From: a virus | Taxonomy: Duplodnaviria > Heunggongvirae > Uroviricota > Caudoviricetes | IMG/VR virus record: IMGVR_UViG_3300008262_000022 | Length of the DNA: 64,000 nt | Direction: 5' to 3' (one strand) | Shown here: positions 8,306 through 45,359 of the stretch, one piece after another | Layout of the letters: each line of letters opens with the position of its first letter | Position numbering within the stretch: the first letter of the stretch is position 1 | Notes under the pieces: model-generated | Databases searched by the model: none | Told to the model about the DNA's origin: nothing | The model's input: only the letters and a program-made list of their open reading frames with translations | Made by a program: the position numbers and the translations under genes

Positions 8306-8308
8306 GTT

Positions 8309-9625: not shown

Positions 9626-9998
9626 TTGCCCTCGTTGTAATTCAAACGCATGTTCTGAAATGTCAGATGGTACTATAACCATCTGGCAGTGCATGGGTTG
9701 TGGATTTACATCTAACACATTTCTAACAGAAGAAAATTCAGCTAAATATAAAGAAGTATTACCTGAACTATACAAAGATCTTGAATTTATAGATGAAAAA
9801 GGATTACGTTGGTATCCAACGTCAGTAGTTATGGAAGATAAATCTATGATATTTGCTGAAGGTATATCAACTGAAAATTGGAAATGGTCAGCTGTGCAAG
9901 CTAAAGACGGTAAGCCAGATATGACTACTAAAAAAGAGTTTAATGATAACGACTTTATAGAAGCTTTAGATTATGTAGGATATTTTAATAAAAAATAA
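9606..9998 (+). CDS. zinc-ribbon protein
   Basis: CPRCNSNAC..CMGCGF. Confidence 0.45.
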   Translation: MKEQLINCPRCNSNACSEMSDGTITIWQCMGCGFTSNTFLTEENSAKYKEVLPELYKDLEFIDEKGLRWYPTSVVMEDKSMIFAEGISTENWKWSAVQAKDGKPDMTTKKEFNDNDFIEALDYVGYFNKK

Positions 9999-9999
9999 T

Positions 10000-10635
10000 A
10001 TGAAAATAACATATGGTATTACAGTCTGCGATGAAGTAGAAGAAATCTATGATTTGTTAGATTATCTCTACTCAAATATAGATGATAATGATGAAGTTAT
10101 CATTTTACGTGATATGGATAAAACAACAGATGCTGTAACTAAAGTTATAAATCAACAAATTAGCCTGTATAAACCCAATCAAGTTAAAGTAGTAGAGTCA
10201 TCACTAAATGGTGACTTTGCTACATTTAAAAATAATTTAATTGAGCATGCTACCGGCGATTATTTATTTCAAATTGACGCAGATGAAATACCAAATCAGT
10301 TTTTGATTGATAATATTAAACCAATACTTAAAATTAATCCTGGTATAGATTGTCTATATGTGCCTCGAGTTAATAAAGTAAATGGTTTAACCCCACAGCA
10401 TATTCTGAAATGGAAATGGAGAGTTGATTCCGAAAAACGTGTCAACTTTCCTGATCCTCAGATGAGAATATTTAAATTAAACCAAGGTATAAAATGGAAA
10501 AATAAAGTACATGAGGTGTTAGATGGATATAAATCTATCACCACATTACCTTATGATGACGAGAGTTTTTGTTTAATACATATTAAATCAATCGAGAAAC
10601 AAGAAAAACAAAATAATTTTTACGAAACAATATGA
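10000..10635 (+). CDS. glycosyltransferase family 2-like
   Basis: GITVCDEVEEI N-terminus and QIDADE (DXD). Confidence 0.5.
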   Translation: MKITYGITVCDEVEEIYDLLDYLYSNIDDNDEVIILRDMDKTTDAVTKVINQQISLYKPNQVKVVESSLNGDFATFKNNLIEHATGDYLFQIDADEIPNQFLIDNIKPILKINPGIDCLYVPRVNKVNGLTPQHILKWKWRVDSEKRVNFPDPQMRIFKLNQGIKWKNKVHEVLDGYKSITTLPYDDESFCLIHIKSIEKQEKQNNFYETI

Positions 10636-11036
10636 CCAATAGAAAATATTTACCTACATTAAGTGAACTAATAGATAGATTAAGTATCACACAATTAAAA
10701 GAAGTATTTATTACTGAACACAAATCAGAATATGCTGCAGAAATAGCAGATATAGTTCATGATATTCAATTACATTTAAACGAAAGTAAAGAACCAATTA
10801 CTGCTGAAACAATTAGAGCTATTGTTGTATTATCACAAATGAATTTGCATATATGGCACAATGAATCAAATGTTAGAAGTGGTAAATCAGGCCCAAATGC
10901 TCTAGCATTAACTCATGGATTAAACGGTATTCGTAATACTGCTAAAAACCAAATTCAAGAGGTAATGGGCGGTCGTAAAGATTATAAAATTGATTGTTTA
11001 GCAGCAGATTTTAAAGACTGGGAAATTAGTTGGTAA
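10632..11036 (+). CDS. hypothetical protein
   Basis: ORF track. Confidence 0.4.
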   Translation: MTNRKYLPTLSELIDRLSITQLKEVFITEHKSEYAAEIADIVHDIQLHLNESKEPITAETIRAIVVLSQMNLHIWHNESNVRSGKSGPNALALTHGLNGIRNTAKNQIQEVMGGRKDYKIDCLAADFKDWEISW

Positions 11037-12274
11037 CACAAAATAAAATTACAACACAGATGAATAAACCTATATTTTCATTAGCAGAAAATCAACTTAC
11101 AACAGACTATGAATTGATATTGGATTTAGGGAATCAACCTTGGGGAAATAACTTCATAACTGAAGACCAAGTAGGTAAAGAACCCTTCTATCCATTACAG
11201 TTAGTATATTGTAACCAATCAGAATTATTACAATTAAGTTATTTCGTTCCTAAAGAAGTTATGTTTAAAAAACACTCTTACTTATCAGGAACTACTCGAA
11301 CATTATTAGACCACTTCTATAACTTAGCCAAGGAAAATATAGAACAGTACCAATTAACTCCAGAAGATATTATTTTAGATATAGGAGGAAATGATGGTTC
11401 ACAACTACAACAATATAAGAAATTAGGAATAACAAATACTATTAACTTTGAATCAGCTGATAATATTGTCGATATATCTAGAGAAGGTGGGATTTCTACA
11501 ATAAATGACTTCTTTAATGAGGAAAATGTTAAAAAACATTTAGAACCTAATAGCATCAAACTAATAAACGCATCTGGTGTATTCTTTCATTTAGAGGAAC
11601 TAGATAGTGTTATAAAAGGAATTAATTATTCTTTAAAAGAAGATGGTGTGTTCGTTGTACAATGCATGTACGTTGGAGCTATGGTTGATAATTTAAACTT
11701 CGACACTATATACCATGAGCATCTATGTTATTATACTTTAAATAGTCTAACAAAACTATTGTTAAAATACAATCTACATTTAGAAGATGCATACTTTAGT
11801 GAAATACATAGTGGAAGTATAATATGTAAGTTTAGAAAATACGAAACAACGCATACAGAAAGAACAAAGGTATTAGTAGAAAGAGATAGTAAATATACAT
11901 TAGAATCATTTAGAGAATTTAGTAGTAAAGTTCAAGATAAAAGGTGGAAATTAAGAGAACTATTATTATCTTTAAAAGAAAAAGGAAATAAAATATATGC
12001 TTACGGAGCTCCTGTTAAAGGAAATACTTTATTGAATTATATGAATATCGATAATACATTAATAGATAAAGTAGTAGAAATAAACCCATATAAAATAGGA
12101 ACATATACTCCCGGATCACATATTTTAGTTGAAAGTGAGAATGAGAATGATTTTCCTGATTATTATTTAATGTTATCTCATAATTTTGAAAAGGAATTAA
12201 TTGAGAAAAATAAAAACTTAATAAAAAAAGGAGTAAAATTCATCATCCCATTCCCAGAAATAAAAATTATTTAA
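11030..12274 (+). CDS. sugar C-methyltransferase-like (SAM MTase with NDP-hexose C-methyltransferase-type domains)
   Basis: LDLGNQPWGNNF (Methyltransf_13-like), DIGGNDGSQL SAM glycine-rich motif; possible start at 11060. Confidence 0.55.
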   Translation: MVTQNKITTQMNKPIFSLAENQLTTDYELILDLGNQPWGNNFITEDQVGKEPFYPLQLVYCNQSELLQLSYFVPKEVMFKKHSYLSGTTRTLLDHFYNLAKENIEQYQLTPEDIILDIGGNDGSQLQQYKKLGITNTINFESADNIVDISREGGISTINDFFNEENVKKHLEPNSIKLINASGVFFHLEELDSVIKGINYSLKEDGVFVVQCMYVGAMVDNLNFDTIYHEHLCYYTLNSLTKLLLKYNLHLEDAYFSEIHSGSIICKFRKYETTHTERTKVLVERDSKYTLESFREFSSKVQDKRWKLRELLLSLKEKGNKIYAYGAPVKGNTLLNYMNIDNTLIDKVVEINPYKIGTYTPGSHILVESENENDFPDYYLMLSHNFEKELIEKNKNLIKKGVKFIIPFPEIKII

Positions 12275-12278
12275 TATT

Positions 12279-13169
12279 ATGAAGATATTTTCTAAAAATT
12301 CAATAGCTCAAGAACGATTTGATTTTCATATAGATGTCAATTGTGAAAAATATAAGAATAAACCTATCTCTATCTTCTGTGATTGGCCAGCTTCATTAGC
12401 AGAATTAAGTGAAAATCCAATTAATATTATTATACTAAACGAACCCAATGAACTCTTTGGATTAGTTGATTGGACTATATTTAATCAAAATCATTTTGCT
12501 GTTATATTGTCTCAATGGGATAAAATTCATCAAAATTGTCCAAATTCATTAGTATTTGTTCATGGTGAAACTAATCTAGATAGAGAATATATCGAGAGTT
12601 ATAAGATTAATCCTGAACGAAAATATGAGGTAACTTTTTTAAGTGGGGTGTTAGAGATACTTCCTGGTCATAAATTAAGGCAAAGAGTATTATATAATGA
12701 ACCTAACATTAAAATTCCTCATAAATTTTGGAAAGTTCTAGATGATTTTGATCCTAGAGGACAACGCCCTGGATATTTTGAAGTAAAAATGACTAAATGG
12801 GGTAATCCTATTGAAGGTGAAGGAAAGAAACAAGTTTGGGATAGACATGCTATGTTTCATGTAGCTATAGAAAGTAAAAAAGAAATTAATTATTTCGCTG
12901 ATAAAATACTAGATTGTTTTGCAACTAAAACATTACCTATATATTTTGGAGCACCTAATATTTCTGATTTTGGGTATGATGAAAACGGGATTATTAGGTT
13001 TAGTGATGAAAATGAATTAGTAAATATACTAAATAACTTAACTCCGGATGATTATTATAGTCGATTAGAAGCAATAAATAATAACTATGAAGCTGTCCAA
13101 AAATATGGTTTCTTTTTTTCTAGAGTAGAAGCATTTTTAGATGAACTAATTAAAATAAATAATCTATGA
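12279..13169 (+). CDS. putative alpha-1,3-fucosyltransferase-like (GT10) protein
   Basis: FHVAIESKKEINYFADKILDCFATKTLPIYFG resembles FucT motif FxxAFENS..Y.TEK..PVV.G. Confidence 0.35.
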   Translation: MKIFSKNSIAQERFDFHIDVNCEKYKNKPISIFCDWPASLAELSENPINIIILNEPNELFGLVDWTIFNQNHFAVILSQWDKIHQNCPNSLVFVHGETNLDREYIESYKINPERKYEVTFLSGVLEILPGHKLRQRVLYNEPNIKIPHKFWKVLDDFDPRGQRPGYFEVKMTKWGNPIEGEGKKQVWDRHAMFHVAIESKKEINYFADKILDCFATKTLPIYFGAPNISDFGYDENGIIRFSDENELVNILNNLTPDDYYSRLEAINNNYEAVQKYGFFFSRVEAFLDELIKINNL

Positions 13170-13927
13170 AAATATTAGTTATAGGCGATAGTTGTGAAGA
13201 CCACTATATCTACTGTTCATCAGATAGATTTTGCCCAGATGCTCCAGTTCCTGTTTTAAACCCGATTAAAACTATTAAATCATTAGGAATGGCAGGAAAT
13301 GTATCGGATAATCTTAGATCATTAGGTGCTGAAGTAGATATATTATCTAACACAGAAAAAATTAAAAAGATAAGATATGTTCATGAAAGAACAAATCATA
13401 TGTTTATCAGAATAGATGAGGGTGAAAATAATATAAAACGAGTTAAACCTAATCTTTTAGAGATTATAGACTGGGGCTCATATGATGCTGTTGTGATTAG
13501 TGATTATTGTAAAGGATTCTTAACAGAAGAAGATATAGAATATATTACTAAACAGCATCCTCTAACGTTTTTAGATACTAAAAAAACATTAGGTAAATTC
13601 GCTGATAATACTGCGTTTATAAAAATAAATGATGTTGAATATAATAAAACTAAGTCAACAATAACACCTGTATTAAAAGAGAAACTTATAATAACTTTAG
13701 GTTCTAAAGGGGCCATTTACAAAGAAAATTCGTATCATGTAGACGAAGTAGATGTAAGAGATACTAGTGGTGCAGGGGACACATTCTTAGCTGGGTTAGT
13801 ATATTATTATCTCACTTATAACACCATAAATCAAGCCATCAATATGGCAAATAACTGTGCTAGTCAAGTAGTACAGAAAAAAGGAACAGCAAAAGTAAAT
13901 AAAAACGAATTAAAATATGAAATATAA
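13166..13927 (+). CDS. PfkB-family sugar kinase (RfaE domain I/heptose kinase-like)
   Basis: KILVIGDSCEDHYIY N-terminus and DTSGAGDTFLAG signature. Confidence 0.65.
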   Translation: MKILVIGDSCEDHYIYCSSDRFCPDAPVPVLNPIKTIKSLGMAGNVSDNLRSLGAEVDILSNTEKIKKIRYVHERTNHMFIRIDEGENNIKRVKPNLLEIIDWGSYDAVVISDYCKGFLTEEDIEYITKQHPLTFLDTKKTLGKFADNTAFIKINDVEYNKTKSTITPVLKEKLIITLGSKGAIYKENSYHVDEVDVRDTSGAGDTFLAGLVYYYLTYNTINQAINMANNCASQVVQKKGTAKVNKNELKYEI

Positions 13928-14441
13928 ATTTAGTGAAAAATTACCTGACGTAGCTATTATCCAACCTAGTATATTTTATGACTTTAGAGGAGAATACGTT
14001 GAAACCTGGAATTCTGAATATTATAAAGTATTTGGTAATGGTGGAATTGAGTTTAAACAAGATGACGTTAGTGTATCATGTAAACATACTTTAAGAGGAC
14101 TACATGGTGATTTTGAAACGTGGAAATTAGTACAATGTATCTATGGTTCATTACTACAAGTAGTAGTGGATATGAGAACTGATAGTAAAACCTACCTTCA
14201 ATACGATATGTTTTCTATAACTGACAAAAACAGAACACAAATTCTTGTACCTCCTGGATTTGCTAATGGGCATTTAGTAATGAGTGAAATGGGAATTTTC
14301 TCTTATAAACAATCTACATTATATAAAGGAGTAGGAGCTCAATTTACAGTAAGATGGGATGATCCTAAAATCAATATTTTTTGGCCAGTCAAAGAACCTT
14401 TATTATCTTCAAGGGATAAAAATGCAAAATATATAAATTAA
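13917..14441 (+). CDS. NDP-sugar 3,5-epimerase (RmlC-like cupin)
   Basis: IIQPSIFYDFRGEYVETW..RGLHGD pattern as in RmlC. Confidence 0.6.
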   Translation: MKYKFSEKLPDVAIIQPSIFYDFRGEYVETWNSEYYKVFGNGGIEFKQDDVSVSCKHTLRGLHGDFETWKLVQCIYGSLLQVVVDMRTDSKTYLQYDMFSITDKNRTQILVPPGFANGHLVMSEMGIFSYKQSTLYKGVGAQFTVRWDDPKINIFWPVKEPLLSSRDKNAKYIN

Positions 14442-14442
14442 C

Positions 14443-15390
14443 ATGAAAATACTAATTACAGGAGCAGCAGGATATATAGGCTCAGTTTTAATTGAACACC
14501 TATATCAAAGATCAGATGTTGAAAAAATAATAGCTGTAGATAGCTTACTTTATAATCAGACATCACTCATGCAATATTGCCATAAATCTAATTTTGATTT
14601 TCATAAATTAGATGTTCGTAACTTTGATAAAATGCTTCCTTTAGTTCAAGAAGCAGATGTGATTATACCGTTGGCTTGTATAGTAGGAATGCCAGCTTGC
14701 AAAAAATACCCTGAGCTAACAATTGCCACCAACCAAGAAGCTATTCAGTGGTTAACTAAAGTAACAAGACCTGATCAAAAAATTATTTTTCCTACTACAA
14801 ATAGCGGTTACGGAATTGGACAAGAAGGTATATATTGTACTGAGGAAACCCCGTTAACACCAATTTCTCTTTATGGTGTAACTAAAGTTGAAGCAGAAAA
14901 AGCATTATTAGAAAGTGGGAATGCCGTTACATTAAGATTAGCCACAGTATTTGGTTTATCTCCTCGTATGCGATTAGATCTACTAGTAAATGATTTTACT
15001 TACAAAGCATATAAAGACAAATACATTGTTTTGTTTGAATCTTATTTTAAACGTAATTACATTCACATAAGAGACGTTGTAAGAACATTTATGTTTGCTA
15101 TTGATAATTTCGATAAAATGAAAGGACAGGCATATAATGTTGGACTAAGCTCAGCTAATTTAAGCAAAATGGAATTATGCCAAATAATAAAACAATTTAT
15201 CCCTGATTTTTATATAGCAGAAAGCGAAATAAACAAAGACCCAGATCAACGTAACTACATTGTATCTAATAATAAATTAGAATCATTAGGATGGTCTCCT
15301 AATTATAACTTAGAATTTGGAATAGCAGAATTACTTAAAGCATATCCAATTATTGATAATATAAATAATAAAAATTTTACAAACTTATAA
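14443..15390 (+). CDS. NAD-dependent epimerase/dehydratase (SDR)
   Basis: ILITGAAGYIGS Rossmann motif; YxxxK region present. Confidence 0.65.
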   Translation: MKILITGAAGYIGSVLIEHLYQRSDVEKIIAVDSLLYNQTSLMQYCHKSNFDFHKLDVRNFDKMLPLVQEADVIIPLACIVGMPACKKYPELTIATNQEAIQWLTKVTRPDQKIIFPTTNSGYGIGQEGIYCTEETPLTPISLYGVTKVEAEKALLESGNAVTLRLATVFGLSPRMRLDLLVNDFTYKAYKDKYIVLFESYFKRNYIHIRDVVRTFMFAIDNFDKMKGQAYNVGLSSANLSKMELCQIIKQFIPDFYIAESEINKDPDQRNYIVSNNKLESLGWSPNYNLEFGIAELLKAYPIIDNINNKNFTNL

Positions 15391-16055
15391 TGGAAAACAT
15401 AAAATTACAAACCGATTTCCCAATAGCGTATGAATCACCAGATCATTTAATGCCTTGGGGTACTATGAGAGACAATTCAACTAATCCTTATTTTATTGAA
15501 GAAGTCCAAGAATTTTTTAAATTAAACTATAACCTAGATAAAATTAAATTTATGGATTTAGGTTGCTCTGGAGGACAATTAGCCGTAGATTTCTATAAAA
15601 AAGGAAATATTGCTGTTGGATTAGAAGGAAGTGACTATAGTGTTAAACACCAAAGAGCCAATTGGCCAGAATATCATAACAAAATGCTATTTACTTGCGA
15701 TGTATCTAAACCATATACAGTATCCGTAAATGATGAACAGTATAAATGCAATGTGGTAACAGCATGGGAAGTTATTGAGCATATCCATCCTGATAGTTTA
15801 AATATGTTTTTTACTAATATTTCAAATCATTTAGAAAACAACGGTATTTTTGTAGGTTCTATTTCAACTAATGTAGAAATTATAGAAGGACACGTATTAC
15901 ACCAGTCAGTATTTTCTAAAGAAGAATGGTATGAAAAGTTTTCTGAATTTTTAGCAGGAACTAATCTTGTTTTATACCATTATCCTTTCCAAAATGTTGT
16001 AAGAGGTGATTGGGGATCCTTTCATGTGTTGCTTAAAAAAGAAGTAGATGAGTAA
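15390..16055 (+). CDS. class I SAM-dependent methyltransferase
   Basis: FMDLGCSGGQLAVDF motif I. Confidence 0.55.
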   Translation: MENIKLQTDFPIAYESPDHLMPWGTMRDNSTNPYFIEEVQEFFKLNYNLDKIKFMDLGCSGGQLAVDFYKKGNIAVGLEGSDYSVKHQRANWPEYHNKMLFTCDVSKPYTVSVNDEQYKCNVVTAWEVIEHIHPDSLNMFFTNISNHLENNGIFVGSISTNVEIIEGHVLHQSVFSKEEWYEKFSEFLAGTNLVLYHYPFQNVVRGDWGSFHVLLKKEVDE

Positions 16056-16935
16056 TATATTAGTAACAGGCGCAACTGGTTTTGTAGGAAGACATTTAGT
16101 ACCAACTTTAAAAGAATTAGGTCATTGTGTTACTACTACTAATAGCAATAATTATCTATATATTCTAAATATCCACCAAAACACAAAATTTGATTATATT
16201 ATCCACCTAGCAGTTAAAACAGCTGCTGGTGGGTATTGTCAAACACATCCTGGTGAGCAATTTTTAGAAAATCAAAATATAAATACCATAATGTTTAATT
16301 ATTGGAATTCATATCAACGACAGGCTAAAATGATCACATTTGGATCATCTTGTGGATATGATAAAAACAGTATTAAAACTGAAGATAATTATTTAAAAGG
16401 TGAAACAGAGCCAGGCTATGAAGCGTACGGAGCAATAAAGCGTAATTTGTTAATAGGATTACAATCATTAAAAAAAGAATATAATATGGAATATTCTTAT
16501 TTGATTCCGTCTGTATTTTATGGTCCTGAATATGATCTAAACGATAAACACTTTATATTTGACTTAATTAGAAAGATACATACTGCTAAGCATACTGGAA
16601 GTGAAGTAGTGTTATGGGGAACTGGGGAACAAAAACGTGAATTGATATATATTAAAGATGCTGTTGATATAATTATTAAAGCTATGACTTGGAATAAAGA
16701 AATAGTTAATTTATCATCTGGTAAAGAATATTCAATTAAAGAATATGCTCAAACAATATGTGATATAATTGGATATAATTTTAATTTAATAACATGGGAT
16801 CTAAATGCTTTCGTAGGAGCTCCAAATAAAAAACTAATTAATACTCATTTACAAGATTATCAATTTACTTCATTAAAAGAAGGATTAACCGAAACAATTA
16901 AATATTATGAAAATAGGAGCAGTATGTGTTGGTAG
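16048..16935 (+). CDS. NAD-dependent sugar epimerase/reductase (SDR)
   Basis: ILVTGATGFVGRHL. Confidence 0.6.
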   Translation: MSNILVTGATGFVGRHLVPTLKELGHCVTTTNSNNYLYILNIHQNTKFDYIIHLAVKTAAGGYCQTHPGEQFLENQNINTIMFNYWNSYQRQAKMITFGSSCGYDKNSIKTEDNYLKGETEPGYEAYGAIKRNLLIGLQSLKKEYNMEYSYLIPSVFYGPEYDLNDKHFIFDLIRKIHTAKHTGSEVVLWGTGEQKRELIYIKDAVDIIIKAMTWNKEIVNLSSGKEYSIKEYAQTICDIIGYNFNLITWDLNAFVGAPNKKLINTHLQDYQFTSLKEGLTETIKYYENRSSMCW

Positions 16936-17791
16936 GAATGACGGATATAAAGACTTTGAGCGTGGTATAATTCATTTTAAATCAATGTTAGATACATTTG
17001 ATGAAGTAACTTACATTGATTGGAATTCACCTAGTGGCTCATTTTTATGGGAAATACAAGATAAATTGCCTAAAACAGGCAAATTAAAACATTTTGTTAT
17101 CCCACCAGAAGTAGTATCTCAAATAGTACAAGATCCTAAAGCACAACAATGTAATGAGGGATTAAGTAGAAACATAGGTATAAAAAGAAGTAATTGTGAT
17201 TGGGTTGTATCAACTAATCTTGATATAATTCCACCCAAACGTGAAGATTTAGTAAAACTAATTGAAACATTAGATCCTAATGCTTTTTATACTATTTCTC
17301 GTCGTGAAGCACCTAAAGATATTATATACACAAATGGGCATGAAAATTGGGAAAAGACAAGAGATATTTTATATCAATCAATTCCTGAGCGTCATTTTCC
17401 TGCTATGGTAACACCAAATGACCACTACAGTTTAATCAATTGTTGTGGTGACTTTCAGATGGCTCCTAAAAAAGTTTGGGATAAAATTAAAGGATTTGAA
17501 GAACAGATGATATATGCTTGTTTTATTGACACAAACATTCAAAAGAAAGCAACATTAAATGGGTTTAAATTAAAAGATTTATATTATCCTCCTTTATTTC
17601 ATATGGAACATGGAGCATATTACACTAAAGAAGACGGGACACGTGTCTTAGATGCTGAAAATAAAGGAGCATTTAAAGGTGATAACAAGGCATATAACGA
17701 CGCGTGGTATTGGGTAGAATATTTTAAAGAATCAGAAAACACAGATGATTGGGGATTAGGAAATATAGAAATAGAATATGAAATAATCTAA
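16907..17791 (+). CDS. hypothetical protein, possibly GT-A-like
   Basis: ORF track; last gene of the sugar cluster. Confidence 0.35.
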   Translation: MKIGAVCVGRNDGYKDFERGIIHFKSMLDTFDEVTYIDWNSPSGSFLWEIQDKLPKTGKLKHFVIPPEVVSQIVQDPKAQQCNEGLSRNIGIKRSNCDWVVSTNLDIIPPKREDLVKLIETLDPNAFYTISRREAPKDIIYTNGHENWEKTRDILYQSIPERHFPAMVTPNDHYSLINCCGDFQMAPKKVWDKIKGFEEQMIYACFIDTNIQKKATLNGFKLKDLYYPPLFHMEHGAYYTKEDGTRVLDAENKGAFKGDNKAYNDAWYWVEYFKESENTDDWGLGNIEIEYEII

Positions 17792-17813
17792 TATTTATTA
17801 AAAAATGTAGATT

Positions 17814-23986: not shown

Positions 23987-24307
23987 ATGAGAAAACAACT
24001 TTTCATTTTTATCACTCTTCTTATTGTAGCTATAGGTTGGGCTGCTATCGTCATCAATTATAAACCTGCCCCAACCAAATCTGAACAACCTAAAGAAGTT
24101 GTTGAACAGCATACAGATGAACCAAGACGATGGAAGTCATCAGAAACCGGATTGCCTATGGGTATAGTGTTAGAGGGAGCGTATATTGAAGGTTTACCAT
24201 CATCAAATTGGTTATCAATAAAAACTATAGATGGTACTACTACAATTGTAAAGAATATAGACTGGCAGTTACACGATGCTATAAATAATGGAGATATTAT
24301 AGAATAA
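23987..24307 (+). CDS. membrane protein
   Basis: N-terminal TM LFIFITLLIVAIGWAAIVI. Confidence 0.45.
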   Translation: MRKQLFIFITLLIVAIGWAAIVINYKPAPTKSEQPKEVVEQHTDEPRRWKSSETGLPMGIVLEGAYIEGLPSSNWLSIKTIDGTTTIVKNIDWQLHDAINNGDIIE

Positions 24308-24735
24308 TGAAACCACAACGAATAAGAGCACAAGTACAAATTAATCGCGATGAGTGGCTCGAGCATAAACTTCCACCTAACGAGATTGAAGTCATACTTA
24401 AACATCAATTGATAGAAAAATTATCTAAAGAATTAATTGACCAAATTGATATTACTAAAGAATCAAATGGTTGGGTAGGTGAGGAATGGAGAGTAGATAT
24501 CACAGTAATGTCAACTTATGAGTATAGAAAGTTGATAGATGAGTTAATTAGATTACAAGGAGGTGTTACTGAGACATCTGGTTACCATTGTTCAACTTGC
24601 GGTAAGTATAATCGTACTTCAGTTATATGTAACCATAATAATGATTTTAATAAGTTGATAAATAAATTATCAAGCCAAAACTTACCACCTGAATATGGTC
24701 AAATGATAACTGATAACTTTAATGATTTGGTATGA
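24307..24735 (+). CDS. zinc-ribbon protein (paralog of 28031..28252 C-terminus)
   Basis: CSTCGKYNRTSVICNHNNDFNKLINK. Confidence 0.45.
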   Translation: MKPQRIRAQVQINRDEWLEHKLPPNEIEVILKHQLIEKLSKELIDQIDITKESNGWVGEEWRVDITVMSTYEYRKLIDELIRLQGGVTETSGYHCSTCGKYNRTSVICNHNNDFNKLINKLSSQNLPPEYGQMITDNFNDLV

Positions 24736-25205
24736 GTAAAGAGTATACAATGGGAGAATTAGTGGGTGAAATAATATTGTTAAAATATTTACCTACACTT
24801 GAAACAGATTTAATTCAAACCAATAAACGAGTTAAAATAACTGATCCAAATGATTTAAAAGAAAATCAACGTTTAGATGAAATAATGGATTCTAAAATGG
24901 GGTATGCTTATATGGAGAAGGAGTATTCAGAGGCACATGGGTTATGGTTAGCACATACTAAATTTTTAGCTAAAAAATACCTACCAGAAAAACTTGAATG
25001 TAGAGTAACTCAGTTTGAAATTGATGATATAGAATCATTTAAAGAAGGTATAAACGATTATTTATGGAATTGTGATGTGAGTTGGTATGTAGCGGAAGAT
25101 GATTTCTTAGATCGTAATTCAGATGATGAATTGTCTGCAATAGATGAATTTGATAACGAAAACGAACTCCGTGAATACTTACAACAGTTTTTTGAGCGTA
25201 CTTAA
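24732..25205 (+). CDS. acidic hypothetical protein
   Basis: ORF track. Confidence 0.45.
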   Translation: MSKEYTMGELVGEIILLKYLPTLETDLIQTNKRVKITDPNDLKENQRLDEIMDSKMGYAYMEKEYSEAHGLWLAHTKFLAKKYLPEKLECRVTQFEIDDIESFKEGINDYLWNCDVSWYVAEDDFLDRNSDDELSAIDEFDNENELREYLQQFFERT

Positions 25206-25210
25206 AATTG

Positions 25211-25245
25211 CGCCCAACGTTTTGTGGCTTTGCTTAGTGCGGGAT
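25211..25245 (+). repeat. intergenic AACGTTTTG-family motif R1
   Basis: GCGCCCAACGTTTTGTGGCTTTGC. Confidence 0.5.
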
Positions 25246-25278
25246 TGATAAGATAAATTTACTTTAAAACCGAAAATT

Positions 25279-25512
25279 ATGAATACAGAAAAAACAAACT
25301 TAGAAAACGAGAAACCTGCATTGAGCAAAGGTGCTGTTAGCGGTAGTTTACGTGCGGATGCTTTGGAGTGGTTCTTTGCGAAAAGTGAAATTGAAAAAGA
25401 AGAACTAAAAGATAAACACTTTGCACATGAATATATTGCACATGATAGCCATTGGGGATTTCATTTCACTTTTGGTCAAATAGAGAAAATGTATGTTAGT
25501 GAGCTTGGGTAA
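25279..25512 (+). CDS. hypothetical protein
   Basis: ORF track. Confidence 0.4.
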   Translation: MNTEKTNLENEKPALSKGAVSGSLRADALEWFFAKSEIEKEELKDKHFAHEYIAHDSHWGFHFTFGQIEKMYVSELG

Positions 25513-25516
25513 ATTA

Positions 25517-25592
25517 CCGCTAACGTTTTGCAGATTGCCGAAGGTGGGGCGTTGTACCACTAAACTTTAATTGAAATACAAAACTTGATAAT
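25517..25592 (+). repeat. intergenic motif R2 (TAACGTTTTG .. CCACTAAA .. TTGAAA .. AACTTGATAATATG)
   Basis: shares its core and leader with R6. Confidence 0.5.
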
Positions 25593-25991
25593 ATGGAAAA
25601 TGTTGATTTGAAAGACGAAACCCCCACTTTTGGCAATGTGCTGTTACCTGCTGTTAAATTGTGCGTAGGGCAGAAACTTTGGCTTGTTCGTTCACATCAT
25701 TACAGAAACGATGATAGAACTCCAAAAGAAGTTACAATAAGTAAGGTAGGTAAAAAATATTTTGAACTTGAAGATTATCCAAGAGCAAAATTTGAAATTG
25801 AAACATTAAAGCAAGTAACAGAAACTAACTACATTGATAGATGCCATTTAACATTACAAGAGATACTTGATGAAAGGGAATTTGATAAACTTGTAGGAGA
25901 AATTAAAAATATTTTTGGTGGATATGGAAAGCCAAAGTTGACATTAGAACAACTGCGTAAGATTAGGGATGTGGTGGGTGGCAAAATTTAA
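25593..25991 (+). CDS. hypothetical protein (MENxDLK family)
   Basis: N-terminus MENVDLKDETP paralogous to 27704 and 26068. Confidence 0.45.
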   Translation: MENVDLKDETPTFGNVLLPAVKLCVGQKLWLVRSHHYRNDDRTPKEVTISKVGKKYFELEDYPRAKFEIETLKQVTETNYIDRCHLTLQEILDEREFDKLVGEIKNIFGGYGKPKLTLEQLRKIRDVVGGKI

Positions 25992-25994
25992 TTG

Positions 25995-26036
25995 CAGGTA
26001 ACGGTAAGGTGGTTGGCGTTCGTTGCCGACCTTGGA
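25995..26036 (+). repeat. intergenic motif R3
   Basis: GGTAACGGTAAGGTGGTTGGCGTTCGTTGCCGACC. Confidence 0.4.
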
Positions 26037-26067
26037 AACAAAACATTAACTTAAAAATAAATTTGAT

Positions 26068-26322
26068 ATGGAAAACAACACTTCAATAAACCACGAAAAC
26101 GGCAATGACGCTAACCGCTTGTTAGCACCCGTTTTTGATTCTTTCCCTTTGTTCTACTGTCAACACAAGGATGAACAATGGGTTTGTAAGCATTACAAGG
26201 TTGTAGATAATGATTTTTACAGCATTGAAACTAAATGTAGATTTCTTGGAATTGATAATGAAACTTGCAATAGTAAACCTTGTAATGCTGATGCGTGTCG
26301 TCAGTTTTTAAATGGGTGCTAA
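26068..26322 (+). CDS. cysteine-rich small protein
   Basis: 10 Cys in 84 aa; MENN N-terminus. Confidence 0.45.
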   Translation: MENNTSINHENGNDANRLLAPVFDSFPLFYCQHKDEQWVCKHYKVVDNDFYSIETKCRFLGIDNETCNSKPCNADACRQFLNGC

Positions 26323-26360
26323 CGTTCCCACGCCTTGCGCTGTTGCTGATTGCGTGAGGT
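26321..26360 (+). repeat. intergenic motif R4
   Basis: TAACGTTCCCACGCCTTGCGCTGTTGC. Confidence 0.4.
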
Positions 26361-26863
26361 AAATTTGTCAACCAAAAATAAAATAATATATGCGTAGTAA
26401 AAACATAAAATTAAGTAGTTACCGGCAATGGCGCAAGACGTGTGTTACCACCTGTTGTTCTTCTTGCGTTTATTTGTCTGCAAGTAAAATGTGTTTTATA
26501 ATAAATTCATAAACAGCCATGATAAATAATATAATAGCAGTCACCCAAGTAACTTTTTCAAGCCACGATGTTTTGGCTGGTTTGGTTTCCTTAGTCGGAT
26601 TATTTGTTTGTATTGTTGGGTTTTCTCGTGCATTGTCAGACCGAGATTGATTAACATTATTACAGTCACTGTTGTCATGTTGTCTACAATAGGTGGTAAC
26701 GTGATGCGGCTTGTAGCTGAAAGGGATTTAGAAGCACAATGTTTCAACCTTGCACTACTGCCGATTAGAACCACAAATGATGAATGTAGCACATCAGCCC
26801 TTTTTGCCACAAACCGCTGTTATGTGCTGGGCGGATTATCAGCACTGAATAAAATTTGAAACG

Positions 26864-27106
26864 ATGTTACAAAAGAAAAAAAGAAGGCTCAAAACCATAG
26901 AAAGCAAAATAGAGAAATTAAAAACAGATTTTCCATTAGTTGATTTTAAGAATATGGAAATTAAAAGAGCCTATGAAAAATACCACGAATTGACAAAAGA
27001 ATTGATTTACTTAACTGTTGATGTGAAATTTTGTCAAACCGAAAATAGAAATGAAATGTGTAGTGATTGTAATTGTTGGAAGGCTGTCGCTAATCGATGC
27101 AGTTAG
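26864..27106 (+). CDS. small protein with C-terminal Cys cluster
   Basis: CSDCNCWKAVANRCS. Confidence 0.4.
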   Translation: MLQKKKRRLKTIESKIEKLKTDFPLVDFKNMEIKRAYEKYHELTKELIYLTVDVKFCQTENRNEMCSDCNCWKAVANRCS

Positions 27107-27155
27107 CATTGCACATAACGTTTTGCAGCTAACCGAAGTTGGCGATTACGAAGGA
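27107..27155 (+). repeat. intergenic motif R5
   Basis: GCACATAACGTTTTGCAGCTAACCGAAGTTGGCG. Confidence 0.5.
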
Positions 27156-27273
27156 CAAATTTTCAAACTTAAACAAATGTATAATCGAAGCATAAACGCC
27201 CATATAACCACTAAACCGCCAATTTTGGTTAGGTGCTGTTATGTGCCGTTTTTCTTCACAAATCTTAATTAAA

Positions 27274-27621
27274 ATGATAACAGAAAACGAATACCTTAAA
27301 GCAAAGGAAATTATTGCTCAATACGAAAAGGAGCAATCAGAAATGAAAGAACTACTTGCAAAAGAAACGCTAATAATTAGAATTGGTGGATGTTTACACG
27401 AAAACGGCAGGATAAGTTTAATACCATATCCAAAAGACCGTAGATTAAAGATTAGAAAGCAAGGTGAAAGATTTTACACTATTACTGACCTTAAAAAGTA
27501 TTATGGTATTAAAAAAACTACCAAAACAGGAGAAAAGGAATGGGCAATAAGTCCGAGAGGAAAAAGGTATGAGTGGGATATTCTTGAAGCAGAAATTTCT
27601 ATGGAGTATGTCGCTCTTTAA
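27274..27621 (+). CDS. hypothetical protein
   Basis: ATG at 27274 after motif R5; the track ORF from 27241 includes non-coding leader. Confidence 0.45.
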   Translation: MITENEYLKAKEIIAQYEKEQSEMKELLAKETLIIRIGGCLHENGRISLIPYPKDRRLKIRKQGERFYTITDLKKYYGIKKTTKTGEKEWAISPRGKRYEWDILEAEISMEYVAL

Positions 27622-27623
27622 AA

Positions 27624-27703
27624 TGGCACATAACGTTTTCGGGCTTTGCGTTCGTTGGGGATTTCCAGCACTAAAGCTTATTTGAAAAACTAAACTTAAT
27701 TAT
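27624..27703 (+). repeat. intergenic motif R6
   Basis: GCACATAACGTTTTCGGGCTTTGCGTTCGTTGGGG..CACTAAAGCTTATTTGAAAAACTAAACTTAATTATATG. Confidence 0.5.
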
Positions 27704-27868
27704 ATGACAGAACTTGATTTGAAAACGAAAGCCCCCAATGACGCAAAACCAGTGTTGGGCGCAGTTTTTTCTCCTTGGGATTATGCCGAAGAAGCATTTT
27801 CTGAAACACTTAATTATATGTCAGATGATGAATGGGATAATATAATAACACTAACAAGAACAATATGA
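27704..27868 (+). CDS. small protein (MTELDLK; paralogous N-terminus)
   Basis: 54 aa, below the track cutoff; nt-level similarity of the first 30 nt to the 25593 gene. Confidence 0.4.
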   Translation: MTELDLKTKAPNDAKPVLGAVFSPWDYAEEAFSETLNYMSDDEWDNIITLTRTI

Positions 27869-28043
27869 TAAACACAGAACCAACAATAATAACAATAACA
27901 TCACACGGTAAAAAATTCACAGCAGAATTACCATGGGATGTATCAATGCCTGAACTTGCTGATGCAATAAGAGGCTTAGTAAAAGCATCTGGATACCCAG
28001 ATGAATTAGTTAACGAATATATTAAGACGGATGGCGACGCTTG
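27865..28043 (+). CDS. small hypothetical protein
   Basis: 59 aa; ATGA overlap with the previous stop. Confidence 0.35.
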
Positions 28044-28252
28044 AAACACAATATAAAGACTACTTAATTGAACATCCCAACTCAACATTTAGTTTTGAGG
28101 AATGGAAGGAACATGTATTAGGTAGAAAGTTAGATACAGTACTTAATATCAAATTAGGTGGAGGATACGATTGTCCACAATGTGGTAAATATAATCGTAC
28201 ATCGGTTATTTGTAACCATGATAATGATTTCGATAAATTTATTAATAAATGA
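28031..28252 (+). CDS. zinc-ribbon protein (paralog of 24307..24735 C-terminus)
   Basis: CPQCGKYNRTSVICNHDNDFDKFINK. Confidence 0.45.
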   Translation: MATLETQYKDYLIEHPNSTFSFEEWKEHVLGRKLDTVLNIKLGGGYDCPQCGKYNRTSVICNHDNDFDKFINK

Positions 28253-28530
28253 AAACAATTAGAATAGGTTTACAAACCCAAGTTAATGTGGAAGTATCTC
28301 AAATTCCTCTTAGTTTAGAGGAAATTGTAGAGATGGCTGATAATCCACCAATTCCTAATTACCAACAACAAGCTAATGATTTCATTGATACTTTGGATGG
28401 TTATCACAATGTTGCTTTTTTGGAAGCACTACATATAGTAGCAGCTAAACGAATAGTTGAACATTGGAGAAAATTCTCTCCGAAACGATTAGAGGAAGAA
28501 CGATATAAACAATATTTGAAATATGAATAA
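28249..28530 (+). CDS. hypothetical protein
   Basis: ORF track. Confidence 0.45.
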   Translation: MKTIRIGLQTQVNVEVSQIPLSLEEIVEMADNPPIPNYQQQANDFIDTLDGYHNVAFLEALHIVAAKRIVEHWRKFSPKRLEEERYKQYLKYE

Positions 28531-29524
28531 ATTAGACTTAGCTTACCAAGCACTCCTACAAGACATACTTGATAATGGAGTTGAAAAGAAAGATAGAACT
28601 ACAACTGGTACAATATCAGTATTCGGTAGACAAATCCGTCATAAAATGAGTGAGGGGTTTCCATTACTCACAACAAAGAAAATGTACTTTAAAGGTATAG
28701 TAACTGAACTACTTTGGTTTTTAAGAGGTGATACTAATATCAAGTATTTAGTTGATAATGATTGTCATATTTGGGTAGGAGATTCCTTTTCTAACTATGA
28801 GAAAAATGCCGTTGTAGGTGATGTGATTGATAGTCACTATGAGCCAGCAACAGATAAATGGCATTTGTACAACAAAGAAGAGTTTATCAATATGATCAAG
28901 AAGGATGAAAGATTTGCTAAAAAGTGGGGTGAATTAGGACCTATATATGGTAAGCAATGGAGAAGTTGGAGACGATATAGAAAATTACCAAAAGATGATT
29001 ACACTACAGATTACAGAGAAAATGAACCAATAGATCAAATCGCAAACCTAATCAACGACCTTAAAACAAACCCAGACTCAAGACGATTAATGGTTAATGC
29101 TTGGAATGTAGGTGAGTTACATGAAATGGTTCTTCCTCCTTGTCACTTCTCGTTCCAATGCTATTCACATGAAAAAGAAGGTAAACGTTATTTAAGTTTA
29201 GCTTGGAATCAAAGGTCCTGTGATGTGGGGCTCGGTATCCCTTTTAATATTGCTTCTTATGGTCTATTATTAGAGATTATAGCTAAAGAGGTGGGAATGA
29301 TTCCGTATGAGTTAATTGGTAATTTAGGAGATTGCCACATCTATAATAATCATATAGATGGTCTTAAAGAACAGTTAACAAGAGAACCATATCCACTACC
29401 TAAAATATGTCTAGATTATAGAGAAGGGGAATACAATAAAGACCTCACTGATTTAACTCCTGATGATTTTGTATTATTCGATTATCAATCTCACCCATCA
29501 ATAAAACTTCCTTTATCAAACTAG
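28523..29524 (+). CDS. thyA: thymidylate synthase family protein (ThyA-like; a pyrimidine hydroxymethylase cannot be excluded)
   Basis: RRLMVNAWNVGELHEMVLPPCH and QRSCDVGLGIPFNIASY motifs; about 60-aa insertion relative to canonical ThyA. Confidence 0.8.
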   Translation: MNKLDLAYQALLQDILDNGVEKKDRTTTGTISVFGRQIRHKMSEGFPLLTTKKMYFKGIVTELLWFLRGDTNIKYLVDNDCHIWVGDSFSNYEKNAVVGDVIDSHYEPATDKWHLYNKEEFINMIKKDERFAKKWGELGPIYGKQWRSWRRYRKLPKDDYTTDYRENEPIDQIANLINDLKTNPDSRRLMVNAWNVGELHEMVLPPCHFSFQCYSHEKEGKRYLSLAWNQRSCDVGLGIPFNIASYGLLLEIIAKEVGMIPYELIGNLGDCHIYNNHIDGLKEQLTREPYPLPKICLDYREGEYNKDLTDLTPDDFVLFDYQSHPSIKLPLSN

Positions 29525-29568: not shown

Positions 29569-30081
29569 ATGATTTCAATTTATATATTATTAGAAAATGA
29601 AACACCTGTTTATTTAGGTAAAACCAATGAACCAAACAGACGATTAAGAGAGCATCGAATGAATTTTAGTAAAGATATTTGTCTTGAAGTTATAGATGAA
29701 GTAGAAGAAAATGAATGGATGTTTTGGGAACAATGGTGGATTGGATTATTTCATAATTGGGGAATAAAATTATTAAATGGAAATAAAGGTGGAGGGGGTC
29801 CTGAGTATCAAAAAGAGTCATCTAAAAAACTAATAGGGGATAAACAGAGAGGAATCAAAAAACCAACAGTTAGTAATAAACTTAAAGGGCAAAAAATAAC
29901 TTGGGATTTAGGAACTAGTACCGCTGTTTTACAATTTGATAAACAAGGAAATTTTATAGCAGAATACAAATCAATGGGTGAAGCATATTCTAAAACAGGA
30001 GTCCCAAGCTCAGCTATATGTGAGGTGTGTAAAGGAAGAAGAAAATCAGCTCATAAATTTATTTGGAAATACAAAGAATAA
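29569..30081 (+). CDS. GIY-YIG homing endonuclease-like
   Basis: SIYILLE..VYLGKT..RRLREH N-terminal GIY-YIG pattern. Confidence 0.5.
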   Translation: MISIYILLENETPVYLGKTNEPNRRLREHRMNFSKDICLEVIDEVEENEWMFWEQWWIGLFHNWGIKLLNGNKGGGGPEYQKESSKKLIGDKQRGIKKPTVSNKLKGQKITWDLGTSTAVLQFDKQGNFIAEYKSMGEAYSKTGVPSSAICEVCKGRRKSAHKFIWKYKE

Positions 30082-44164: not shown

Positions 44165-44196
44165 TTTACATTTACATCATAATTAAAATAAATACC
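44165..44196 (+). promoter_or_regulatory. candidate promoter
   Basis: TTTACATTTACATCATAATTAAAATAAATACCATG. Confidence 0.4.
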
Positions 44197-44406
44197 ATGG
44201 ATATAATAAGTGTATTATGTATAACTTACTTAATATTATCAAGTACAATAGGGGCTTGGTGGATGGCTAGTATGGATGTAAGTGAAGAAAAAGATCATAT
44301 AACTTTATTTGTTATATTATGTAATATCTTACCAGCAGTTCTATTTAGTTGGATATTATTTCCTCTTGTATTAGCTAATAAAATTAAAATTAAAAAATTT
44401 AAGTAA
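44197..44406 (+). CDS. holin-like small membrane protein
   Basis: 69 aa, two TM segments, immediately after the endolysin. Confidence 0.4.
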   Translation: MDIISVLCITYLILSSTIGAWWMASMDVSEEKDHITLFVILCNILPAVLFSWILFPLVLANKIKIKKFK

Positions 44407-44591
44407 TGAGATTATTTGCAGTATTCAGTATGATGCTTTGGTTATGGAAACTTATATACCATACTATGTTTTATGATGTTAGTATATGGTTATTATTTTT
44501 CTACTTAGTTATGCTTGCATTAAGTATAGCTTTATATGAATCAACTACAAAAGAAATTAAAAATGAAAAGGACATTGAAGAAAAAAATTAA
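44406..44591 (+). CDS. small membrane protein
   Basis: 61 aa, two TM segments. Confidence 0.4.
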   Translation: MRLFAVFSMMLWLWKLIYHTMFYDVSIWLLFFYLVMLALSIALYESTTKEIKNEKDIEEKN

Positions 44592-45200: not shown

Positions 45201-45305
45201 ACATGGTTGAGAGTGTCTTACATTTATTAGGTATATGTCCAGATTCGTTTACTCATTATGATGCTATTGATTTTATAGTCTGTAATTTTAATGAGTTAAA
45301 AAACT

Positions 45306-45359
45306 TATTTTGGAGGGCAAGATAAAAATCGTATATTTACATCGTTAAATTTAAAAAAT
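45306..45359 (+). promoter_or_regulatory. candidate promoter
   Basis: TTGGAGGGCAAGATAAAAATCGTATATTTACATCGTTAAAT. Confidence 0.45.

Follow-up and report, generated by a model that had tools for sequence, protein, structure and literature searches.

Integrons are regarded as bacterial devices defined by the integrase IntI and its I2 helix, and reports of integrons in phages have so far been a handful of predictions of attC sites. In this study, we examine an array of small gene cassettes at positions 25204-27768 of a 64,000-nucleotide (nt) stretch of tailed-phage DNA (IMG/VR record IMGVR_UViG_3300008262_000022; Caudoviricetes), referred to throughout as the window. The array probably comprises six complete mobile cassettes and one that is split, with seven structured recombination sites akin to integron attC sites between them, and it points to a largely undescribed route by which accessory genes are traded among Bacteroidota phages.

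Several described systems bear comparison with this array. The pdif modules of Acinetobacter plasmids are discrete genes bracketed by inverted Xer-type sites and are found in many contexts; the pdif sites are conserved, double-stranded XerC/XerD sites of 28 bp, in alternating orientation, with no hairpin leaders or cassette-specific arms. The CTX phage integrates its whole genome at the host dif site by means of the host XerCD. Val and co-workers reportedly showed in 2005 that a Xer-family recombinase without the IntI insertion acts there on a folded hairpin of single-stranded DNA. The CTX stems are said to mimic two 11-bp binding arms around an imperfect centre, with one strand exchanged and the product resolved by replication.

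In attC sites, cleavage falls in the AAC box of the bottom strand, a G follows AAC in most sites, R-box pairing extends up to 9-11 nt, and the terminal structure ranges from 3 nt to a branched fold (Bouvier 2009; PMC2727003). Clusters of attC sites lacking integron integrases (CALINs) have been reported in virulent phages (Qi et al. 2023; PMC9892861). T4-type phages carry promoter early stem-loops (PeSLs), which are repeated stem-loop intergenic modules that flank novel open reading frames (ORFs) in hyperplastic regions and shuffle via circles; they are conserved sequences, an early promoter plus a terminator, that act by homologous recombination (PMC2839356, PMC4122927). Beyond Qi et al. 2023, in a literature of which our coverage was incomplete, we found no description of nested arms, of the extent of the family, of a leader function or of an Xer-type recombinase; an earlier description is possible.

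Results

Nested arms and hairpin leaders

Seven hairpin leaders of about 118 nt (117-120 nt, with coordinates refined from the inverted repeats), numbered here U1 to U7, separate six small gene cassettes between 25204 and 27768. Each cassette is flanked by its own 15-nt inverted arms, AAAAT-N6-TAAC ... GTTA-N6-GTTTT; seen from the leaders, ..AAAAT-N6-(T/C)AAC stands on the 5' side and GTT(A/G)-N6-GTTTT on the 3' side. A repeat search showed that the inverted repeats of the window enclose genes, not gaps. The 3' arm of each leader is complementary to the 5' arm that precedes the next leader, and the pairing closes as a cyclic shift, in that the last 3' arm (27754-27768, after U7) pairs with the first 5' arm (25204-25218, before U1) over a distance of 2.5 kb. 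The usual arm pairing consists of 10 perfect base pairs, a T.G wobble and four A-T pairs. With 95 matches, the cyclic shift is the unique best of 5040 permutations, compared with 63 matches when arms of the same unit are paired. The inner stems, formed by the outermost 30 nt at either end of a leader, find their best partner in that same leader, this diagonal of -219 kcal/mol again being the unique best of 5040 permutations. Since the arms pair by cyclic shift and the inner stems within their own leader, the pairing register breaks at the junctions between leader and arm. These nested, cassette-specific inverted repeats are the key feature that a first-pass annotation of the window had missed.

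A common fold was found in all seven leaders: 4-5 unpaired nucleotides (GTTTT), 3-4 bp, one mismatch, about 16 bp and an AT-rich loop of about 70 nt, with folding z-scores of -2.2 to -5.8 (n=7). When a leader is joined to the 5' arm that ends its own cassette, a longer hairpin results that is stabler than the junction present in the array (7/7). Seven sites in 25203-27769 reach 104-138 bits with a covariance model of the unit, which finds none elsewhere in the 64 kb; an ad hoc hairpin scanner gave weak false positives outside arrays, at window positions 2459, 9648, 36203 and 45095. Compared column by column, the leaders are about 64% identical. An ATG lies inside the loop in five of the seven units, and in the other two, U5 and U6, the short leader ORF terminates and a separate ATG serves the cargo. 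Every gene of the window is on the + strand. Comparison of the array with 50,697 phage records (megablast, blastn) returned only the thymidylate synthase gene (thyA) and one 63-nt match in the megaphage LR745206.1.

The first-pass annotation had described a GC-richer array of paralogous small genes, amplified as cassettes and punctuated by repeats on a palindromic AACGTT core. The rise in GC is borne out, at 0.353 in 25205-27870 against 0.308 in the window, and its source is the stems and arms (0.484, against 0.257 in the loops and 0.327 in the cargo). The repeat is likewise real: a repeat search recovered a recurring family with AAC|G (D1, five copies), and the motif AACGTTTTG, with exact copies only at 25216, 25522 and 27117, occurs 40 times at one mismatch or less where 21.6 are expected, a count that none of 100 shuffles reached. 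The AACGTT hexamer by itself is about as frequent in the window as expected (22 copies against 20.7), and the supposed core is really the junction of a cassette end (..TAAC) with the start of the next hairpin (G..). Two gaps do have a leader in common, those of U2 and U7 (D3; gaps at 25545 and 27656; 73% identity over 82 nt), and the layout of one repeat per gap fails because there are seven units, of which the one at 26701-26818 had been overlooked. Several ORFs have similar first codons, as had been seen, yet what they have in common is leader-encoded nucleotides alone, some 17-19 codons read in frames that differ between units. The cargo genes belong to no common family, and only cassette 2 has a Pfam match (Phage_ProQ_C_like, 1e-17). 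What survives is thus a cassette array, not an amplification of paralogous genes. The suggested accessory or anti-defence role is plausible for the family; in relatives, the cargo most often bracketed by arms is an orphan DNA methyltransferase.

Covariation and the folding strand

Covariation was examined in an alignment of 55 family members that was fitted to the model and hence leans to the structure. In it, 88.2% of cells are paired versus 55.5% after shuffling, compensatory cells, with both sides changed, number 295 versus 112, and double changes occur in 16 of 17 pairs. The covariation score is 0.744, compared with 0.183 for shuffled alignments; none of 500 shuffles scored as high, and slid controls gave 0.08-0.15. 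An alignment made by MAFFT only (A2) has compensatory changes at 14 of the 17 pairs. One pair is G.U in 54 of the 55 sequences, and a T.G stands at arm position 11 in 19 of 25 arm pairs. The hairpin of the + strand is stabler than its complement in 33 of 41 units with RNA parameters (p=2e-4) and in 35 of 41 with DNA parameters (p=6e-6), and the coding strand is therefore the strand that has been selected to fold.

Unit-precise mobility in relatives

Further arrays were found near relatives of thyA or by way of the cassette proteins (contigs L003, L005, L023, L083-L088 and L091, the last being the 634,780-bp uncultured phage LR745206.1). Of 31 adjacent arm pairs at ten loci, 25 match at 11 or more of 15 positions, compared with 4.9% of 1609 non-adjacent pairs. 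Leaders in relatives measure from 37 to about 120 nt, and among them are bare hairpins that lack a start codon and have TCGTTTTAATG as their loop.

Two units of the window recur elsewhere, U2 with cassette 2 in L083 and L084 and U6 with cassette 6 in L086-L088, on contigs that have no other DNA in common with the window or with each other. The copy of U2 and cassette 2 in L083 is 95.7% identical, with homology confined to window positions 25519-26003, and those of U6 and cassette 6 in L086, L087 and L088 are 82-87% identical over 27108/27115-27634/27639. Homology blocks between otherwise unrelated phage contigs end at TAAC|G, and the arrays of relatives finish at ..TAAC|T with no leader beyond. 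The mobile unit therefore consists of leader, 3' arm, gene and 5' arm, bounded by TAAC|G. Two contigs, L128 and L154, are 99-100% identical over about 10 kb that include a recombinase gene, and their sole differences are two precise indels of one unit (383 nt) and two units (744 nt), each with TAAC|G at its limits; the site of the two-unit indel is exactly the border of the last cassette with the sequence that begins 41 nt before the recombinase ATG. The conserved crossover and unit-wise gain and loss that mark cassette boundaries in integrons are thus found here as TAAC|G-bounded blocks and indels, with which the cyclic-shift arms agree. Because the pairing register breaks there, boundaries are unit-precise, arrays end there and insertion occurs near the recombinase, we infer a site-specific exchange at or within TAAC|G(T/G). 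Finer mapping of the crossover is precluded, as the bases there are invariant.

After the last ..TAAC, the array ends of L104, L174, L195, L003 and L084 are AT-rich and alike (TATCATATATCAAC, TATTATATATAAGT, TATATTATATATGT, TATAAAATATAGAT and TATTATATGTAATAC); this sequence is a candidate attI-like end site. The array ends of L128 and L154 carry GTGGGGTTAGACATCAC instead. One arm type (GTTATGTGCTGGGC.. / AGCnTTGCACATAAC), together with about 60 nt past the 3' arm, is common to cassettes with different cargo at window 26819-26876, in L003 from 15412, in L091 from 12005 and, as the reverse complement, in L186 at 5479-5747, which hints at an exchange of cargo within a constant frame. The matches of one covariance model (R1) in L003 were found in one scan and were not relisted in a later one. 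L023 has a second repeat of about 65 nt, AAAAGGTTTGGCTCCCC..TTCGTTCGTATATTTACCATGTAATAAGAAATAAGAGTTATG, 3' of bare hairpins at 1895-1960, 2745-2810 and 3945-4010, which looks like a separate promoter/leader module for the minimal hairpin loops. Directly after its array, at 5000-5600, comes a G+C-rich, apparently structured non-coding stretch that may be an RNA gene or an intron.

Extent of the family and an adjacent recombinase

The bare-hairpin pattern TAACGG-N13-16-GTTTTAATG-N12-16-GTTA is present in at least 120 IMG/VR contigs and in at least 120 contigs of GTDB genomes, nearly all of the latter from Bacteroidota. Complete bacterial chromosomes also contain arrays of this family, either within prophages or as chromosomal arrays; that of Aquimarina sp. 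LLG6339-5 (NZ_CP159328.1) has nine units and five cassettes with their own arms in 8 kb, and others lie at further Bacteroidota genome loci. Members of the family also include P12002L_attC1 of Polaribacter phage P12002L, an attC predicted by HattCI only and oriented as the bottom strand (PMC9892861). A hairpin scan found arms of the family type in this phage, and the bottom strand of the site reads TGCTAAC-GG-CTACGGCTAAACGG-TCGTTTTAATG-CCGTTTTAGCCATT-GTTAGGC, that is, a bare-hairpin member whose bottom strand is the + strand of the present description. MW202573, a CALIN phage of Qi et al., served as a control and falls outside the family, with no cyclic-shift arms (3-9 of 15 matches).

When the ORFs of 129 viral loci were clustered, the commonest neighbour was an N6/N4 DNA methylase (18 of 129 loci; PF01555, 6e-36), followed by a DnaB-like helicase, named by eye from its N-terminal sequence (12 loci), a tyrosine recombinase of about 266 aa (10 loci) and a C5 DNA methylase (8 loci; PF00145, 4e-36). 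Complementary arms enclose 17 of the 32 methylases in the N6/N4 cluster and four of the eight in the C5 cluster; none of the recombinase, NinG-like or YqaJ-like genes is bracketed in this way. An assignment of the last cargo gene of L003 to the S24 peptidases was set aside as weak (E 9e-4, below cut-off).

The recombinase of about 266 aa is encoded at 11 of the 120 listed viral loci with the bare hairpin. At 11 of 11 it lies on the hairpin strand, downstream of the array, and at five a distance of 41-125 nt separates the last ..TAAC from its start codon; as many as 12 or more cassettes are present in the arrays at these loci. The protein contains the domains Phage_integrase (Pfam, 1.6e-36) and Phage_int_SAM_4 and, as judged from its sequence, belongs to the Xer/IntI clade. 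Its best NCBIfam match is XerA/integron integrase at 185 bits (cut-off 220), and the integron integrase model TIGR02249 matches in two stretches at 155 bits (cut-off 265). It aligns end to end with Pyrococcus abyssi XerA (4a8e, 6e-40), and with VchIntIA (2a3v) in two blocks between which it has 37 residues where IntI has 85. It is therefore a recombinase without the IntI-specific insertion. Among the matches listed for bacterial loci, a homologue (35-43% identical) was found at only 4 of 120, on the opposite strand, and the link between recombinase and array is not general there.

Proposed mechanism and points against it

The mobile unit would have the form G-[inner stem ~20 bp]-[loop 11 to ~75 nt]-[inner stem]-GTTA-N6-G..-cargo gene-..T-N6-TAAC. 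In the circular unit, both ends would pair into one long imperfect hairpin on the coding (+) strand, with an outer stem of 11-15 bp that has conserved TAAC/GTTA and a conserved T.G wobble at base pair 11, then an unpaired spacer of 4-5 nt (GTTTT), an inner stem in which a mismatch and a G.T are conserved, and a variable loop. An arm of about 11 bp (TAAC/GTTA, with T.G at base pair 11), an unpaired spacer and a second arm would give the geometry of a tyrosine-recombinase substrate. A tyrosine recombinase of the Xer/IntI clade, presumably the enzyme encoded by the relatives, would bind the folded + strand as single-stranded DNA and exchange one strand, with cleavage most plausibly at TAA(C)|G. 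This exchange would insert or excise whole units, preferentially at the array end near the recombinase gene, and replication would resolve the product, as in integrons and in CTX-phage/XerCD recombination. The loop, with its unstructured, A-rich leader, the ATG and about the first 17 codons, appears to have been recruited in this phage family as a translation start; cargo genes would therefore be read on the hairpin-forming strand, out of the site. The window has neither a recombinase nor an array end, and its array is therefore a CALIN-like copy, possibly inert or static at present.

Several observations weigh against this mechanism. No tyrosine recombinase was found in the 64-kb window by Pfam, which covered every ORF of 150 aa or more except thymidylate synthase (38 of 39), and tblastn of the window with the relatives' recombinase returned only noise at E<=10. 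The relatives' enzyme itself lacks the IntI-specific insertion, which is reported to enable single-strand recombination (PMC7790495). What links recombinase and array is adjacency and orientation alone. P12002L_attC1 was not recombined by IntI1 in E. coli, alone of six sites (PMC9892861), and the spacer in the present family is asymmetric (5 nt versus 0-1 nt), which differs from attC. No cassette polymorphism was seen in six population variants (L333-L338), which are collinear with the window at 99.1-99.8% identity. Some differences fall inside leaders, the loop being replaced in L002 and the block of L084 beginning at 25617, and ordinary recombination therefore acts too. Finally, G.U-type wobbles and placement on the sense strand suit an RNA structure equally well.

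Among the same variants, L337 diverges from the window at 26309, off any junction, which may be an assembly artefact, and L335 diverges at 29145, inside thyA, suggesting polymorphism there. No such units are present in Flavobacterium phage immuto, which by thyA is the nearest isolate.

Alternative explanations

The hairpins might instead be mainly RNA elements of a polycistronic early transcript, acting in RNase III-type processing, as stabilisers that pair mRNA ends or in control of translation at the start codon, with exchange as a by-product. We consider this unlikely, although it would account for a structure on the sense strand with conserved G.U-type wobbles, for a loop with an A-rich leader and an ATG in most units of the window, for gene-flanking arms, which would join the 5' and 3' ends of each cistron, and for the placement of all window genes on the + strand. 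It leaves unexplained the unit-precise TAAC|G indels in 99%-identical genomes, the presence of one unit in unrelated contexts and the termination of arrays at TAAC beside a tyrosine recombinase gene. Pairing of the first with the last arm over 2.5 kb is not predicted by an RNA function, bare 40-nt hairpins have no start codon, and an Rfam scan of 24500-28600 at E<=1 returned no family. An RNA role may coexist with recombination.

A second explanation, to which we assign a small probability, is that the units are regulatory cassettes of the T4 type, with a promoter/terminator stem-loop that serves as a homology patch for homologous recombination and mini-circles without a dedicated recombinase. 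Shuffling of ORFs by PeSLs is documented (PMC2839356, PMC4122927), the phage is large and of the virulent type and carries the elements in a hyperplastic accessory region, the repeat takes in both stem-loop and gene start, and some exchange breakpoints, those of L002 and L084, are inside leaders. At about 64% identity, however, the leaders are too diverged for efficient homologous exchange. Crossovers within them would also scramble stem complementarity, yet the diagonal is the unique best of 5040, and boundaries fall at TAAC|G, not within the repeat. The leaders have no promoter motif in common (TAnnTTTG, the -7 motif of Bacteroidota, is present in 2 of 7), and the cassette-specific arms have no counterpart in PeSLs.

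There is very little to commend a small transposon with terminal inverted repeats, formed by gene and inverted arms and resembling a miniature inverted-repeat transposable element (MITE), or a leader that is itself a MITE inserting into palindromic targets. The 15-nt inverted repeats around genes, with conserved ends GTTA..TAAC, would suit such an element, but the N6 cores vary between cassettes and match within each, no target-site duplications were found, arm 0 encloses the whole array in the opposite sense, and no transposase or HUH protein was found among the window ORFs. An inserted leader, moreover, predicts pairing of arms of the same unit, which gave 63 matches versus 95 for the cyclic shift.

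Lastly, we give hardly any credence to the first-pass view of a tandemly amplified promoter, leader and N-terminus that drives paralogous early genes as a separate promoter class, for although the nucleotide similarity does cover the gap and the first codons and another promoter-like motif, TTTACAYCACAATTAA, is missing from the array, the cargo proteins are unrelated, conservation is structural (compensatory) and not of sequence, the frame of the common codons varies between units, TAnnTTTG is as scarce in the leaders as stated above, and the family includes bare hairpins that are 40 nt long, loop over 11 nt and contain no start codon.

Parts of the array and its present place

All parts of the array are on the + strand. 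The 5' arm 0 (AAAATTGCGCCCAAC, 25204..25218) pairs with 27754-27768 as inverted repeat I19, with 14 of 16 matches in the cyclic-shift matrix. It is followed by leader U1 (25219..25335, 117 nt; ATG at 25279 in the loop; z -3.6; 112.8 bits) and cassette 1 (25336..25524), whose arms GTTAGCGGTAGTTTA / TAAATTACCGCTAAC form inverted repeat I6 with 14 Watson-Crick pairs and 1 G.T of 15, and whose ORF (25279-25512, 77 aa) is an orphan with no Pfam or PHROGs match. Leader U2 (25525..25642, 118 nt; ATG at 25593; z -5.0; 132.7 bits) precedes cassette 2 (25643..26002; arms GTTACCTGCTGTTAA / TTAATTGCAGGTAAC; I2), which encodes the protein of 132 aa that matches Phage_ProQ_C_like (PF24203; ORF 25593-25991). 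Leader U3 (26003..26120, 118 nt; ATG at 26068; z -5.8; 120.1 bits) starts with GGTAAG, not GTTTTG. Cassette 3 (26121..26323), with arms GTTAGCACCCGTTTT / TAAATGGGTGCTAAC that form 13 Watson-Crick pairs and 1 G.T, encodes a Cys-rich orphan of 84 aa (26068-26322).

The coding content of cassette 4 (26444..26700; arms GTTACCACCTGTTGT / ACAATAGGTGGTAAC; I16; 14 Watson-Crick pairs and 1 G.T), which follows leader U4 (26324..26443, 120 nt; ATG at 26390; z -2.9; 103.8 bits), is uncertain; its two ORFs, 26390-26512 (40 aa) and 26519-26650 (43 aa), have no family match in Pfam or PHROGs. U5 (26701..26818, 118 nt; z -2.2; 114 bits) is the most diverged leader, and its ORF stops at 26848, before the cargo gene; cassette 5 (26819..27119; arms GTTATGTGCTGGGCG / AGCATTGCACATAAC) has its own ORF at 26864-27106, an orphan of 80 aa. 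Likewise, the leader ORF of U6 (27120..27237, 118 nt; z -3.9; 137.2 bits) ends at 27272, and cassette 6 (27238..27634; arms GTTATGTGCCGTTTT / AAAATGGCACATAAC; I24) encodes an orphan of 115 aa at 27274-27621. Leader U7 (27635..27753, 119 nt; ATG at 27704; z -2.5; 137.5 bits) opens into the 3' arm 0 (GTTGGGCGCAGTTTT, 27754-27768; I19) and the N-terminal part of cassette 0 (27754..27868 with the arm), which is fused to the tail of a resident gene (ORF 27704-27868).

The remaining part of cassette 0 lies on the other side of the array. A 13-nt microhomology, TCAGATGATGAAT, is present at 25119..25131, inside the gene 24732-25205, whose part downstream of it is the C-terminal part of cassette 0, and again at 27821..27833, the point at which the N-terminal part of cassette 0 is fused to the resident-gene tail. 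Contig L002 of IMG/VR has cassette 1, then a U7-like leader (with the same stems and a different loop) and then cassette 0 intact, joining window 27754-27833 to 25119-25218, and its array stops directly after ..CCCAAC. Because cassette 0 is intact in L002, it is recognised as split in the window. The arrangement seems to be the expected product of a multi-cassette circle that integrated into a resident gene via the microhomology within cassette 0, and it is by this route that the array seems to have reached its present place. The upstream gene, used as a probe, found only L002, by way of the cassette-0 tail. Downstream of its array end, at 2520-3400, L002 has an AP2/HNH-like endonuclease ORF, identified by eye, in an apparent intron-like insert that interrupts an ATPase gene.

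Other features of the window

An 88-nt direct repeat of 81% identity (D2; 24580-24667 and 28163-28250) lies about 0.5 kb from the array on both sides and encodes the paralogous CxxC..C..H zinc-ribbon-like C-termini of the genes 24307-24735 and 28031-28252. Directly 3' of thymidylate synthase (28523-29524) is an ORF for a GIY-YIG / I-HmuI-NUMOD-like homing endonuclease (29569-30081). The region 1345-17800 encodes a GroEL-like chaperonin (1345-2976), a clamp loader, a PD-(D/E)XK nuclease and a large sugar-modification cluster with glycosyltransferases, a dTDP-sugar epimerase, NAD epimerases, C-methyltransferases and a PfkB kinase. The separate motif TTTACAYCACAATTAA that the first-pass annotation reported elsewhere is real, with about 13 + strand copies (0-2 mismatches) clustered at 44-57 kb (44171-57337) and none in the array. 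At three mismatches or less there are 18 matches versus 4.8 expected, and the motif is probably a phage promoter class. G+C peaks (0.36-0.39) occur at 53000-56000 and 58001-59000, and at about 58-59 kb both GC and AT skews are negative, unlike the remaining window. There are no tRNA genes in the whole window.

Discussion

A broader proposal, for and against which we find the evidence about evenly balanced, is that Bacteroidota phages, from siphoviruses of about 50 kb to the 634-kb megaphage, carry their own integron-like gene capture. It would combine a short Xer-type recombinase without the IntI I2 helix, folded coding-strand hairpins recombined at TAAC|G, and a site that doubles as translation-initiation leader and N-terminal codons. 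Such a system could have arisen independently or be ancestral or sister to the integron, and would be a major exchange route for accessory and anti-restriction genes among virulent phages, of which the array of the window would be one recombinase-less deposit. The interest of the family lies in its size and unit-precise turnover, in a non-IntI, Xer-type recombinase in the integron position, in cargo dominated by methyltransferases and in a site that supplies the start of the gene. If confirmed, it would offer a concrete mechanism for the assembly of accessory regions in virulent phages, make the origin of single-strand hairpin recombination from Xer-type enzymes testable and provide a compact natural gene-capture system with built-in expression signals.

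Comparison with known systems

Insertion sequences of the IS200/IS605 type and REP/RAYT elements were considered and set aside, as no HUH/Y1 protein was found among the window ORFs or the common neighbours at 129 loci, and each unit has one hairpin with long-range arms versus subterminal hairpins at both ends. The present elements resemble PeSLs in being repeated stem-loop modules beside accessory ORFs of a large virulent-type phage, and differ from them in conservation of structure, in cassette-specific arms, in TAAC|G boundaries and, for some, in the tyrosine recombinase that accompanies them. As in pdif modules, discrete modules are bracketed and found in many contexts. The contrast with CTX lies in arrays of single-gene units within phage genomes and in a recombinase that is, in some, encoded by the phage.

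The differences from the integron concern both enzyme and orientation. No tyrosine recombinase was found in the window, and that of the relatives, about 266 aa long and aligned end to end with XerA, is without the IntI insertion and scores below the TIGR02249 cut-off. In an integron, new cassettes enter at an attI site beside intI, and a Pc promoter reads into ORFs that are mostly promoterless and come before their attC. The window has no array end, and its ORFs are opposite in strand relative to the site and start within it; genes are on the hairpin-forming ('bottom') strand and mostly start in the loop. Further differences from attC are an outer stem as long as 15 bp, in which the T.G of base pair 11 is conserved, and the asymmetric spacer; no extrahelical G or T of the attC kind was identified. 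P12002L_attC1 was no substrate for IntI1, and the hosts of the arrays described here are phages of Bacteroidota.

Other features resemble those of the integron. Tandem single-gene cassettes alternate with imperfect hairpin sites that have little sequence conservation beyond AAC...GTT boxes. CALINs are defined by two or more sites called with the attC covariance model and no integrase nearby, and the window, with seven sites and no integrase found in 64 kb, is CALIN-like. As in attC sites, a G follows AAC, R-box pairing covers 10-11 bp, a spacer is unpaired, an irregular L-like inner stem has a conserved mismatch, the terminal loop is variable, and the start of each cassette is complementary to the far box of its own site; the crossover, too, would fall in the AAC box of the better-folding strand. 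The cargo is rich in orphan DNA methyltransferases, as it is in integrons and CALINs. In relatives, array, end site and tyrosine recombinase gene stand in order, the array end 41-125 nt from the recombinase start occupies the position equivalent to attI, and it is there, beside the recombinase, that new units, including the two-unit insertion, are found.

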